A stretch of DNA of 64,000 nucleotides, taken from contig CAVRCI010000014.1 of NCBI GenBank assembly GCA_963719495.1, positions 128,001 through 192,000 of the forward strand, in the 5' to 3' direction. The DNA is from an uncultured Verrucomicrobiae bacterium (lineage in GTDB: Bacteria; Verrucomicrobiota; Verrucomicrobiia; Chthoniobacterales; JAATET01). Positions 45,801 to 51,961 of this stretch are shown in pieces (positions within the stretch are counted from its first letter, which is position 1; every line of letters begins with the position of its first letter). A program made the translations under genes and the position numbers. Below the pieces are notes generated by a model. The model worked only from the letters and a program-made list of their open reading frames with translations, searched no databases and was not told the origin of the DNA.

Positions 45801-46040
45801 CGAAGGCGTCCCCACCCGCAGCACTTTGCGCAATGCTTCCTCCCGCGGCTCCTCGGGAATCGCCGGATTCAGCCGCCGGATGGCCTCACGCAAGCGCCCC
45901 ACCAGCACCACCTCCGAAAACGAATCCCGTTCCGCCGCCGGTTCACCGGGCGCGAGCTGCGGCCCGTGCCCGACCGCATAGCCCAGCTCCTTGAGCCATT
46001 CGAGGGCAGCGTCTTCGACGATGGATTCGTTGAGGCTCAC
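42828..46040 (-). CDS. hsdR: Type I restriction endonuclease R subunit
   Basis: RRPD...IELK nuclease, [35 protein letters not shown]. Confidence 0.96.
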
Positions 46041-46675
46041 TGGGCCGACTGGGTTACGGTTATGTAGGCCTGCCGCTCGTGGGTCGGTGTTTTAGGGAAA
46101 GCGAGATTGAGCTTCCGTTCCCGAACCAGGCTGGTGAGGTATTGGTTGCGCAGGGTTTCGGGCTTCCGGTTTACGAGTTCCGCAAGGCACCGCAAGGTGA
46201 CAAATCGGCCCTCGCAGAGACTGAGAACGACTGAAATCAGAACTTCTCGGTCCACTTTGCCCTTGTCTCGCGGCTCTCGTGCGAGGGTTTCCAAAGTCGA
46301 CCGAAACACCGGCGAAAGCAGGCTGAGATCGTCCACCATAGGCAGCCCCAGTTGCTCCGAGATCAGGCAGCCTTTTGAATCCCGGTTTTCGTTCAAATTC
46401 GAGGAGCTCCGGCTCAAATTCGAGGAGCTGCCCCCTGAATTCGGGGAGCTCGGAAGCGCAAATTGAGTGGGCGGACCAAACACATCGTCTGGAGTCGGAA
46501 TAGCCTCGCCTGGCAGGTGGTAAACAGCTCCGCGCCCACCTGTAGAATCCAGCATCCCTGCGTGGGTCAAGTGCTGGAGTGTTTTGGACAAATCGACCGG
46601 ATGCTCGGTCGCATAGCCCAACTCCCCGAACCATTCGAGCGCGGTGTTTTCGACGATGGATTCGTTGAAGGTCAT
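46037..46675 (-). pseudogene. Chimeric ORF: 22-aa HsdR N-terminus copy fused to the C-terminal (winged-HTH-like) part of another protein
   Basis: MTFNESIVENTALEWFGELGYA matches the HsdR start, then switches to EHPVDLSKTLQHL...GRGAVYHL...[14 protein letters not shown]. Confidence 0.65.
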
Positions 46676-46686
46676 AGTTCTAGCCA

Positions 46687-46821
46687 ATGTCGCGGCTTAA
46701 CCGTTCTATGGCGTGAAATCTCCGAACCGCGACATCATGTCGCGATTCATGTCGCGATCCCGCTTTCGGCTGCCATTCAGGCTGCCTATCGCGACATGCT
46801 GTCGTGATTCGTGTCGCGATC
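46687..46821. repeat. 32-bp direct repeat at a 62-bp period (two full copies plus a partial one) with 30-bp unique spacers
   Basis: 46728-59 cgcgacatcatgtcgcgattcatgtcgcgatc; 46790-821 cgcgacatgctgtcgtgattcgtgtcgcgatc; partial atgtcgcgg at 46687. Confidence 0.8.
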
Positions 46822-48660: not shown

Positions 48661-48669
48661 GGGTGGTAT

Positions 48670-49701
48670 CTATGCGATGTGCAACCACGCCGTCTGGTGC
48701 TTTTCGAGCGTCTGCTGGCGCTTCAACTGATATGAAGGAAGCGCGTTGATAAGTGAACCGAAGAGCGCGGGCCAGTTACCTGAAAGGATGGATGTCAGAA
48801 CTGAGGTTCCCTTCGTCAAGGCCATGTCCCCTCCTTCAAGCTTCAGTATCTCCTGAAGATGGCGGAAATCATCACGAATCTCTGCCGCGAATTCCTGTTC
48901 GATTTGCTCCACATCCGCAGGTGATTTTGCGTCCTTCTTGATTCGCTCAACATACCGGTCAACCGCTGATCGGTAGTTCCTGCGCAAGGGCGGAAGAAGT
49001 CCGTCTTCCTGTTCCCGCCGCCGCAACGCCACCAACTTACCAAGCGGAAATTTTCCCGCATCAACCGACTTCAACGAAATCGACGCCAAACTGGTGTAGG
49101 CGCGTTGAACGTCGGGTTGGTAATCCTGAACCGCTCCGGTCTGCGTTGCCACAAGGCGACTGAACGCCTCGTGGGCGTCTTTATAGTTCGTCACCTTTCT
49201 GTGTGTTCCGCCGGCACAGATGTCCGCGATCATCCCCATCACAATAAGACCGAAGTCTCGTTGCAGGCCATAGTATCCGTCGCTTCCATCGCTAACGACG
49301 CCTGCGCCATGAAGTAGATCCCAAATCTTCTGACTTAGCTTTTCAGGATACATGTTGTAGTTGTCCACCTGCACCTTGAAACGAAGCGACTCCGGGACAC
49401 CTCCAGCTATCAACTTCTCCAACTGCGCAAAGAGTTCGCCCTTCTCTGGGGCGGTCAACGATCTTGGCTTAACGACCATTTCAAATGCTTCCCGAATGGC
49501 CCTTTCGTCTTCCCTTTGATTTTGACCAATCATCGGTGACGGCTGGAACTGCGGATCGGGAACGATAACCTCCAATGAGTCCCACAACAGAACTGCGGTG
49601 GTAAGAAGTTTCAAGTCTGTTCGGTCGTAGTCTTGGCTTTGCCCAGCAAGGCGCGGAGCAACGATTGTGACGTTCGGATAATAGAGGGCTGCGGTGCTCA
49701 T
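48670..49701 (-). CDS. Hypothetical protein, DUF6236-like
   Basis: ALYYP...LLTTAVLLWD.LEVIVP N-terminus; lower GC; ATGA-coupled to the upstream Abi gene. Confidence 0.6.
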   Translation of the reverse strand: MSTAALYYPNVTIVAPRLAGQSQDYDRTDLKLLTTAVLLWDSLEVIVPDPQFQPSPMIGQNQREDERAIREAFEMVVKPRSLTAPEKGELFAQLEKLIAGGVPESLRFKVQVDNYNMYPEKLSQKIWDLLHGAGVVSDGSDGYYGLQRDFGLIVMGMIADICAGGTHRKVTNYKDAHEAFSRLVATQTGAVQDYQPDVQRAYTSLASISLKSVDAGKFPLGKLVALRRREQEDGLLPPLRRNYRSAVDRYVERIKKDAKSPADVEQIEQEFAAEIRDDFRHLQEILKLEGGDMALTKGTSVLTSILSGNWPALFGSLINALPSYQLKRQQTLEKHQTAWLHIA

Positions 49702-50498
49702 GTTTTGGTTTCCTTGTGGGTTTCAAAAAGAAAAACTGTCAGGGTCGCTGCGGCACCAACTGCCAGCTTCGCGTGCCGGGTGCTCAAGCCCGATGCGCTT
49801 CCGTGTTTGCCGTGGCCGGTGCCATAAAGCCCACGAAGTTCAGCGAGGCCGTTGCCGATAGTTCCTAGGTTGCTCAAGAGGCGCTTGATGACATCAGCAC
49901 CGCGAGCGGCATCGGGAACCCCTTCCGGAACAAGCTTCAGTTCCTTGAGTGTCTCCTTCGTCAGCGTCGAAACGTCAGGAGTGCCTGACACGGGCTTGCC
50001 GCGCTCTGCAAGGATGGTTTTGCAGCAGGTCTCGATGAGTTCTTTCGCGGTTCCGATGGCAAGACTTGGGTCGGTCTCGACGGATGCCTCCATCCGCCGA
50101 ATCTGTTCCGCGAGGTGGTTTACGTTGAGAACCTTTGCGTGTTCCTTGAGTGGGCCGAGGCTCGGGCCTCCAGCGAGAAGGCGCGTCGCAATCTGGCGGC
50201 ACTTATCGGCGAGAGCTTTTGCTTCTGCATCTCGATCTGCGTTGAGTGACGCATCGTAGTCAATCAACGCGAGGATGAGTTTGCCGACGGTATAGTCGGC
50301 TTCGAGTTTCCAGAGGGTGCGGAGTTTCTTTGCCTTCGACGTGCCTTCCGCCGTGAATTTCTCGTCGTGGATGTTGATGCCGACAGTTTCGAACACGAAC
50401 TCTCCAAACGTGCGGTCGGAGAAGTTCAGAACGTAGCCGGACGACATCCCGAAAAACTTTTCGAGGTTGTGGCGCTCTGCCATCGAGAACGTGCTCAT
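49698..50498 (-). CDS. Abortive-infection family protein (Abi_C domain; AbiJ-like N-terminus)
   Basis: FGMSSGYVLNFSDRTF, GTSKAKKLR; AIGTAKELIETCCKTIL, LAELRGLYGTGHG; start reset to ATG 50498, which overlaps the hsdS stop. Confidence 0.82.
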   Translation of the reverse strand: MSTFSMAERHNLEKFFGMSSGYVLNFSDRTFGEFVFETVGINIHDEKFTAEGTSKAKKLRTLWKLEADYTVGKLILALIDYDASLNADRDAEAKALADKCRQIATRLLAGGPSLGPLKEHAKVLNVNHLAEQIRRMEASVETDPSLAIGTAKELIETCCKTILAERGKPVSGTPDVSTLTKETLKELKLVPEGVPDAARGADVIKRLLSNLGTIGNGLAELRGLYGTGHGKHGSASGLSTRHAKLAVGAAATLTVFLFETHKETKT

Positions 50499-51961
50499 GC
50501 CGGAACCTCCTTTTCGACCTCTGCCACGCTCAACTCCCCGCTCAGCAGCTTCGGCAGCAGCGTGTCGCGCAGGGTGGCGAGGGTGCGGGATTGGTGGAGG
50601 TTTGCGGTGATTTGCGCGTAGAGCGGAGCGACTTTGGCGGTGAAGGCGGCCATGAGTTCCTTCGACGGCAGCACGACGCGGATGGGGCGGAAGTTCTGTT
50701 TGCTGATTTCGGCGAAGGTCGTGCCAGTGGCGCGGCTTTCGATCTCGGCCATGTTCGTCTGGCACCAGTTCAGCATGAAGAAGTTTGAGGCGCGTTCGTT
50801 GCACTTCAGCGCGATGAAGCCCTGATTGATGGCGACGGGCATGGCGGCGATGGCAAGGTAGCCGACGGGGGCGCGGGAGGAAAGCAGCAGCGTCCCAGCG
50901 GGAAGCAGGCCGGATGAAATCTTGGCGATGCCGGCGTCAGTGAGCTTGCGGTCGGTGTCGAGGAGGACGGGCGCTTGAAGCGACGAGAAGTCCTTCGGTG
51001 TCGTCCAGTGATGCGTGCCGCCTTCCCAATACTTCGGCTCGGCTGTGCTTGGGGTTCCGCCGCCGACGCATTCGACGACTTCGCCGACGGGCTGGGTGGT
51101 CCAGCCTTTCGGGATGTGACCGGCCTCGGAGTCATGGAAGGAGTCGGAGAAGAGGGCGGCGGTGGCGGGGTCGAGGGCGGCGGGGGTGCGGTTGTCGAGT
51201 TTGGCGCGGACGGGGTCGAAATCCAAGCCGGAGGCACCCTCACCCTCCGCTGCGCTCCTCCCTCTCCCACTGGGAGAGGGCTGGGGTGAGGGTTGATTTC
51301 GATCCATGTTCTGCCGAACTGGATCGAAATCAATAAACCAGCTCTGGAAGAGCGCCCGCGCCATCGCCTCCAGCGTCGCGTTCATCCGCCGGTTCAACTC
51401 GATCTTGTCGTCCAGCGCCCCAAGCACCGCCGCGATGGCTTTTTGCTCGGTGAGGGGTGGGAGCGCGAACGGCACCGCGCTCATAATCGACGTGTTCAGA
51501 TTCGGCATCGTTGCGCCAACCGCGTGACGAACAATCCATTCCCTGATGGCGGGGTGACCGAGAAATAGTGAAGCAAACAGCGGGTCAACTACACCGCTCC
51601 CAAGTCGAACCTTTAAACAGCCAGTGCCGCAGAACCAACCTTCTTCGCGTCCCCTGATGAGCGCCCGTTTCTCAACATCTCCACGTCGGCTGTAAATGAT
51701 GTCGCCCGCCCTCAATCGGTGCTGGCCCAATCGATTGGCGTCCTCCTCGGTGATGCGGACGATTCCATCCTCGACGATTCGGTTCTCGCCGATGTTCGTC
51801 GGCATGATGGATGGAACGCCGACCGGCACATAATCCGAAGCGTGAAGCTGGCTGCCGAACGGGCCAGTTTGAATATTGCCACCACCGCGTTGGCAAATTT
51901 CACCAAGCGTTGTGAACTCCCAATGGTCGGGAATTTCGCCGTTGATGAGGTCAACCGCCAT
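50495..51961 (-). CDS. hsdS: Type I RM specificity subunit
   Basis: Two TRDs; [36 protein letters not shown]. Confidence 0.95.

Follow-up and report, generated by a model that had tools for sequence, protein, structure and literature searches.

Recurrent fused hsdR/hsdS segments as probable homology arms between stacked cargo genes of a type I restriction-modification locus

A 64,000-nucleotide (nt) stretch of a contig from an uncultured Verrucomicrobiae bacterium (CAVRCI010000014.1, positions 128,001–192,000; hereafter the window) contains a type I restriction-modification (RM) locus in which three cargo units occupy the gap between hsdS and hsdR and are divided by partial copies of these two flanking genes. 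The first divider (the linker) is a fusion of an hsdR-5′ segment (nt 1–186) to an hsdS-3′ segment, and the second is a 74-nt hsdR-5′ stub. The linker joint recurs in other hosts between different cargo genes. The stub and linker copies probably serve as reusable homology arms through which RecA adds, swaps and drops units without an integrase. The locus has the co-oriented layout hsdM-hsdS-cargo-hsdR on the minus strand, and all coordinates are positions in the window (Table 1).

The linker starts with a copy of the hsdR 5′ end that an earlier reading of the letters (the sequence-only reading) had described as the first ~210 bp of hsdR. The span of this copy (48660–48447) is correct, but its content is hsdR nt 1–186 with a 30-nt insertion at 48517–48546 and a damaged stretch that contains a frameshift and a stop codon. 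With the gap included, the aligned part of the copy is 78% identical to the start of native hsdR (E 3e-47), and identity reaches 94% in the first 113 nt. It directly abuts the hsdS copy, so that the position proposed for the joint, between PAIP and SRT, was borne out. The hsdS piece is not the last ~60 bp of the gene, as had been read, but a 55-nt copy of hsdS positions −95 to −41 (48446–48392; 91% identity, E 4e-18) that carries a 12-nt deletion. The linker tail downstream to position 48296 aligns with the native hsdS tail of L166 (L numbers designate loci outside the window). The second hsdR copy begins at 46675, as previously noted, but ends at 46602 rather than 46610 (82% identity, E 9e-17), and is fused in frame to the C-terminal part of a helix-turn-helix (HTH) protein. 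The observed repeats score 175, 74.3 and 77.9 bits, above the best of 500 first-order Markov random intervals (32.8 bits with the hsdR query and 29.2 bits with the hsdS query). All parts of the hsdR-5′/hsdS-3′ segments that the sequence-only reading had placed between the cargo genes are therefore present on the minus strand with scores far above those of random intervals. Relative to the intact linker of L153, the window linker is a decayed version with the 30-nt insertion, the frameshift and the 12-nt deletion. The insert matches a dispersed host repeat, with 58 BLAST rows in the genome when the insert itself is counted. This repeat, ~34 nt in length, is found in dozens of copies in the genome of the window and in same-genus genomes.

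The same joint as in the window was identified in 11 other DNA loci (L085, L034, L150–L155, L159, L160 and L164). The L085 and L034 joints came from loci of the stub survey described below, and those of L159, L160 and L164 came from genomes. A pattern scan of metagenome contigs returned six matches, all of which are true fusions; five consist of 185–186 contiguous nt of hsdR followed by the hsdS end, and one has an internal replacement. The 12 DNA joints, including that of the window, are in frame at the join and differ by at most one codon. The genes that flank the 12 linkers fall into eight downstream and seven upstream cargo groups (one upstream flank was too short). L151 and L160 have only the upstream gene in common, and L152 and L160 only the downstream gene. 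The same spacer thus lies between different cassettes on both sides, as in an integron-like array, and the expectation that the joint would recur with variable rather than invariant flanking cargo was confirmed.

An intact linker encodes an in-frame hybrid of ~95 amino acids (aa) that consists of an HsdR N-terminal and an HsdS C-terminal segment (HsdR-N/HsdS-C). In a protein search with the intact linker, the best 120 of 2215 matches are all HsdR-N/HsdS-C fusions at the joint. By alignment, 73 of these 120 have the short form of the joint, 46 are one codon longer and one has another form, and 76 different C-terminal tails are found among them. Because the linker query rewards the joint, the search was repeated with 62 HsdR residues alone, which leaves the tail unscored. 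This query gave 1860 matches of 34–109 aa, the best 120 of which were considered; in 49 of them the sequence runs on into HsdS, in 54 it passes into a second fixed joint, in five it stays in HsdR and in 12 it has other continuations. Two fixed joints, located four codons apart, therefore account for 103 of the best 120 short HsdR-N proteins. At the second fixed joint, EEAR is followed by a palindrome, and rhuM is the next gene in the DNA loci inspected. Judged from these alignments, the breakpoints are strongly clustered. Further independent joins were found among 50%-identity cluster representatives and in L152, L169 and L177/L178.

Palindromic sequences are associated with the joints and with the hsd genes. 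A palindrome of ~25 nt marks the second fixed hsdR joint, immediately before rhuM, in L134, L030, L152, L159, L166 and L167, and a sequence of this type is also observed in the native hsdS tail of L075. Its letters vary widely between loci with the palindromy kept, and within RhuM the residues ATxxxxxxVQ are encoded by a similar motif; the palindrome could be a co-evolving operator. A separate GC-rich palindromic repeat, BoxC-like in character, is inserted in frame in hsdR (45672–45730), hsdS (51236–51294) and hsdM (about 54895–54994) and in many stubs of other loci.

Alignments between loci show the cargo together with its borders. Window positions 48446–46602 align in one piece with the native hsdS end, the deaminase gene and the hsdR start of L166 (1909 columns, 73.6%), in which the deaminase gene is the first cargo, directly behind native hsdS; the same gene is the sole cargo in L070, L103 and L129. 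Window positions 50641–49697, which cover the Abi_C unit from a start inside hsdS, align with the second slot of L169 (946 columns, 82.8%), where the Abi_C copy is located behind a different in-frame hsdR|hsdS join. Likewise, the unit behind the stub in L177 aligns with L176 from the hsdS stop onward (1418 columns, 87.8%). We infer that units travel whole, as hsdS-end/cargo/hsdR-start blocks. At the DNA level, the cargo 3 remnant is 68–70% identical to the 3′ portion of complete genes found in L153 and L032. The full gene, which encodes an AlbA_2-ATPase-HTH protein (Pfam domains of the L153 protein), is found behind the linker in L153 and alone in L032, and because it exists whole in these loci, unit 3 most plausibly arose by deletion. 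The bracketing of every unit by an hsdS end and an hsdR start, as claimed in the sequence-only reading, holds for units 1 and 2 but not for unit 3, which lacks an hsdS end. It also fails as a general rule, since stubs elsewhere mostly consist of a lone hsdR-5′ or a lone hsdS-3′ piece and several other joints are seen. Across loci, Pfam-checked cargo includes AlbA_2, RhuM, GmrSD, HipA, Fic, HicA and PD-(D/E)XK proteins. L021 encodes a UvrD-like N-terminus (labelled from motifs) joined to the ATPase-HTH region of the deaminase protein (oriented positions 1888–3915); the hsdR gene of this locus (5598–5833) retains the first 55 and last 25 codons after an internal deletion, and the cargo persists.

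The frequency of such copies was surveyed in three sets of hsdS-hsdR intervals: 80 best hsdR matches from a scan of a genome collection (13 of 64 parts), 40 regions chosen after a search of 401 genomes of the phylum, and regions from relatives and a 300-genome order search, which were partly picked for short matches and are biased upward. Loci were excluded if the contig lacked the hsdS end or the hsdR start, if the start was unclear (six loci), if they duplicated another locus exactly or if they had no cargo (four loci). The remaining intervals were each searched, with repeats masked, against full-length hsdR, hsdS and hsdM genes. Stubs are present in 31 of 108 intervals other than that of the window (13/55, 9/36 and 9/17 in the three sets). 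Their frequency by interval length is 0/24 below 1.5 kb, 8/40 and 8/23 in the middle bins and 15/21 at 4 kb or more. When the two copies in the window are counted, 34 of 36 hsdR stubs begin within nt 1–18, and all 36 end between nt 43 and 404, with some ends underestimated where a repeat interrupts the match. The survey also yielded 11 hsdS-3′ stubs, and no hsdM-derived stubs were found in the 108 intervals or the window. Preference for the hsdR 5′ end as the best-conserved part of the gene was considered and rejected, given a mean identity of 0.73 for this end and of 0.64–0.86 along the gene. Four further matches were discounted as RhuM-like: they hit an unusual 3′ extension of the L063 hsdR, and the one that was checked, in L133, is located inside RhuM. 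Judged by record titles, the loci with stubs include Sideroxydans, Nitrosospira, Nitrospira, Pirellula, Thermoanaerobaculia, Anaerolineae, Methylococcaceae and Gemmatimonadaceae.

These observations can be accommodated in a three-step scheme. In the first step, a rare illegitimate join would fuse hsdR at nt ~186 to hsdS at ~95–100 nt before the stop, through either a homology-facilitated event or an unequal duplication. Such a step would have to come first, since a fusion of hsdR to hsdS is beyond the reach of homologous recombination on its own. The join lies on a patch in which 8 of 9 nt are common to the two genes. The observed joints keep 4 or 7 nt more than a clean crossover in the shared patch and are hence in frame; one or two old joins and a 3-nt slip would account for them. 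In the second step, the joint would be inherited, because its halves, as the alignments show, match both fixed ends of every such slot. With a linker-bearing donor, one crossover in the linker and one in the real hsdR or hsdS would add a unit and keep the old one, and a crossover between internal copies would, by the established behaviour of RecA, delete or circularise a unit. In the third step, in-frame joints would be favoured because translation stays coupled to the next cargo gene. The stub size limit of ~400 nt might arise because long repeats collapse faster or because longer HsdR fragments are harmful, both of which are conjectural. The exchangeable, stacked cassettes of the sequence-only reading are in line with the joint recurrence and the cargo variation, but that proposal lacked the illegitimate join that makes the linker.

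The genome contains recA and comEC. Its 15 matches to Phage_integrase (PF00589, tyrosine recombinase) are all located elsewhere, and none was found on the contig of the window (C14), in agreement with the earlier description of the array as integrase-free. The 150-nt 5′ end of hsdR correlates with the gene body with a rho of 0.39, in comparison with 0.67–0.73 for four of the five control windows, which hints weakly at transfer of hsdR starts together with cargo. Movement of the cargo, circles, expression from the RM operon and anti-phage activity are presumed. A wider proposal, on which we are evenly divided, is that this type I RM subfamily runs an integrase-free analogue of an integron by means of a chimeric two-armed linker, which would have been born once or a few times, would spread between hosts, be refreshed by the native genes and keep downstream translation, and would allow RecA-only reshuffling of anti-phage genes. 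If true, the genes beside the linkers would constitute a sharply delimited library of defence cassettes.

Several results weigh against reusable homology arms. No stub was detected in 77 of the 108 intervals, many of which are multi-gene. In E. coli, 129 genomes with a related hsdR start gave 135 places, and because each best place is near full length, little room is left for stubs; three loci that were inspected have one cargo gene or none, and a few genomes have two places. Arms of 55–190 nt at 75–95% identity may recombine poorly between distant hosts. The protein matches are related, near-identical metagenome predictions rather than independent events, and only open in-frame joints are visible among them. 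The exact joint pattern was found in 0 of 401 phylum genomes and in no viral contigs, with a pattern that required a gap and was blind to a perfect-register join. The window junction had no match in plasmids, and five same-genus genomes gave only short repeat matches and included no close strain. In the mosaic test, the fifth control window was nearly as low as the hsdR 5′ end (0.44).

The stubs could instead be passive scars of one-off events that were carried along with whole-operon transfer and never reused, arising by homology-facilitated illegitimate recombination or from tandem hsd operons trimmed by deletion. This explanation is compatible with the scattered ends of the hsdR stubs in genome loci (nt 43 to 404), with the other hsdR|hsdS joints among cluster representatives and in L152 and L169, and with the decay of the window linker, and the 8-of-9-nt patch at the join could be hit repeatedly. 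We nevertheless consider it unlikely. One joint is observed between gene pairs that differ on both sides, which requires crossovers in the arms after the joint had formed. Moreover, a perfect-register join in the patch is out of frame and shorter than all 12 DNA joints, although the pattern scans are blind to such a join.

The concentration of 103 of the best 120 short HsdR-N proteins on two joints four codons apart would also be produced by a dedicated site-specific or hairpin-directed enzyme, acting for example at the palindrome before RhuM or at BoxC-like repeats. The second joint abuts the ~25-nt palindrome, whose sequence varies while the joint is fixed, and BoxC-like repeats are observed inside several stubs. 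Such an enzyme is nonetheless improbable, given that the contig lacks a tyrosine recombinase, that the joints vary by one codon and that the repeats have entered the stubs at several positions. The fixed points are equally well explained if a few old joins were inherited. A hairpin at the break site was rejected because fold z-scores are not unusual at the native break sites (−0.79, 0.02, 0.72 and 0.79); the window linker has a value of 0.34 and one intact linker a value of −2.31.

Retention of the 95-aa HsdR-N/HsdS-C fusion as a functional peptide, such as a decoy or regulator of the restriction complex, is slightly less credible still. At least 120 open in-frame versions exist and the conserved HsdS C-terminal segment is retained, but the search selects open frames and the window copy is frameshifted. 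Changes at native-invariant positions are also commoner in the fusions than in the native proteins, in both the HsdR part (38/2017 vs 5/702) and the HsdS part (28/836 vs 5/229). Finally, mis-assembly of several strains into a chimera through their repeated hsd ends would suit the metagenomic origin of most loci and the lack of a bridge over the window joint in the contigs of three sequencing runs, which gave identical short cargo pieces in X1. Such a chimera is nevertheless barely tenable, because the stubs have many changes of their own that are absent from the native genes and contain a repeat of the window's genome, a contig of an unrelated run has the same join at hsdR nt 186 (loose end at 45855), and a stub also occurs in L113, a record titled complete genome.

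The reading frames of hsdS and hsdR in the window are open, and hsdM is split by a 1750-bp ISKra4-family insertion sequence (IS), a feature absent from the sequence-only reading (Table 1). The genome contains five further copies of the element at 99.5–99.9% identity and one at 87%, which suggests its recent expansion in the genome. Because hsdM is cut, restriction-modification is probably dead at this locus, the single hsd locus of its type in the genome. With the linker and unit 3 decayed in addition, the locus is probably a relic in which the cargo genes 1a, 1b and 2 are still intact. The GC content over the cargo is 54–59%, compared with about 63% contig-wide. The sequence-only reading regarded the cargo as defence genes. 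This assignment has family-level support for the Abi_C protein (Pfam Abi_C, E 1e-24; PADLOC AbiJ, E 6e-8), through its similarity to Abi_C/AbiJ; the other window cargo has no such link. The open reading frame of cargo 1b (ORF343), previously labelled DUF6236-like, has no match in Pfam, PADLOC or NCBIfam, and the label is thus unsupported. Its ESM Atlas feature neighbours are hypothetical proteins, one of which has DUF6236 in 12% of its members.

Table 1. Features of the hsd locus and its cargo in the window
Feature	Position	Strand	Evidence and remarks
hsdM, 5′ part	54525..55467	-	Pfam HsdM_N and N6_Mtase (positions 2-121); ends at the IS
ISKra4-family IS inside hsdM	52775..54524	-	NCBIfam NF033572 over cut-off; terminal inverted repeats, 9-bp target duplication
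hsdM, 3′ part	51951..52774	-	Pfam N6_Mtase (positions 123-311)
hsdS, 488 aa	50495..51961	-	Pfam Methylase_S; conserved 3′ end, probable left homology arm
Cargo 1a, Abi_C protein, 265 aa	49698..50495	-	Pfam Abi_C, PADLOC AbiJ; ATGA-coupled to hsdS
Cargo 1b (ORF343), 343 aa	48670..49701	-	No family label
Linker, hsdR half	48447..48660	-	Decayed hsdR nt 1-186 with 30-nt host repeat at 48517-48546
Linker, hsdS half	48392..48446	-	hsdS -95 to -41, followed by cargo-specific tail to 48296
Cargo 2, deaminase + HATPase_c_4 + HTH protein, 491 aa	46820..48295	-	Pfam
Second hsdR-5′ stub, 74 nt	46602..46675	-	DNA match to native hsdR start
Cargo 3 remnant, C-terminal part of AlbA_2/HATPase_c_4/HTH protein	46037..46601	-	Fused to stub in frame; GTGA-coupled to hsdR
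hsdR, 1070 aa, intact	42828..46040	-	TIGR00348 over cut-off; Pfam HSDR_N, T1RH-like_C; first ~190 nt, probable right homology arm

Other repeats accompany these genes. Clusters of short direct and inverted repeats are located at 46676–46819, after the deaminase-HTH gene, and at 46380–46440, inside the HTH remnant; homologous loci keep this layout with different letters, and the clusters are possibly self-binding sites of the HTH domains. An 8-nt unit forms a tandem array of about 15 copies between two genes (41990–42117). Upstream of hsdM, a VapB-like antitoxin reading frame (55764–56024) is found between two 120-nt repeats at 55527 and 56114.

In comparison with known systems, the array is an orphan-module-like exchange of RM cargo with an integron-like layout and is not an integron. 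Integrons carry arrays of attC cassettes, including anti-phage cassettes, and are characterized by IntI and attI. The window array is similar in its tandem, promoter-poor, co-oriented cassettes with a repeated spacer. Unlike that of integrons, its spacer consists of coding-derived homology; there is no attI, and no tyrosine recombinase that could correspond to IntI was found on the contig. Folding, without use of an attC model, showed no attC-like hairpin: z-scores were −0.79 to 0.79 in five of six segments, and the remaining one, an intact linker, had −2.31.

Defence genes embedded in RM operons, such as prrC in EcoprrI and DarTG2, occupy the same hsdS-hsdR slot with variable defence-type cargo. 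DarTG2 is located between hsdS and hsdR at a site called a potential recombination hotspot (PMC12255303), embedded cassettes have been catalogued by guilt-by-embedding in a study whose available main text does not refer to hsdR, hsdS, recombination or tandem arrangement (bioRxiv 10.1101/2024.01.29.577857), and embedded prrC is mentioned in a review (PMC12707154). In their available portions, the descriptions in PMC12255303 and bioRxiv 10.1101/2024.01.29.577857 do not include internal hsdR/hsdS copies, stacking or a mechanism. The entry of defence genes into RM operons is noted but left unexplained in the available portions of the compared papers, and the linker would provide a concrete route. 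In titles and abstract openings of open-access literature, no description of hsdR-start stubs or of an hsdR/hsdS linker was found. RM insertions with long target duplications (Furuta, Abe and Kobayashi 2010; PMC2853133) are, in the available account, similar in their flanking long direct repeats and their lack of mobility genes. There, the RM genes are inserted and a chromosomal target is repeated, whereas in the window the repeats derive from RM gene ends and it is the cargo that is inserted.

The closest parallels are the orphan modules of Rhs and contact-dependent growth inhibition (CDI) systems and the immunity arrays of the Vibrio cholerae type VI secretion system (T6SS), which, as far as the available text of the reports describes them, are likewise integrase-free and use leftover gene fragments as arms (PMC5361080, PMC3967940, PMC3150448). 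For T6SS immunity and Rhs orphan arrays, a two-step model has been put forward, with growth by homology-facilitated illegitimate recombination and exchange by ordinary homologous recombination (PMC5361080). As in orphan arrays, the modules in the window are separated by fragments of a conserved parent gene. The toxin-tip/immunity pairs of a secreted toxin are not present; the cargo across the loci comprises Abi_C, deaminase-ATPase, AlbA_2, RhuM, GmrSD, HipA, Fic, HicA and PD-(D/E)XK proteins. In the Rhs, CDI and T6SS systems, as far as they are described in these sources, one conserved anchor displaces the toxin tip, whereas the window system has a two-armed linker from two flanking genes, which separates whole unrelated cargo genes and uses one joint that recurs across hosts. 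The HsdR/HsdS hybrid of ~95 aa frequently carries the annotation 'type I restriction enzyme R subunit' and could mark the limits of candidate defence cassettes in metagenomic data. Defence genes within RM operons and arrays built by homology were already known, and the new part is the fixed, recurrent fused joint.

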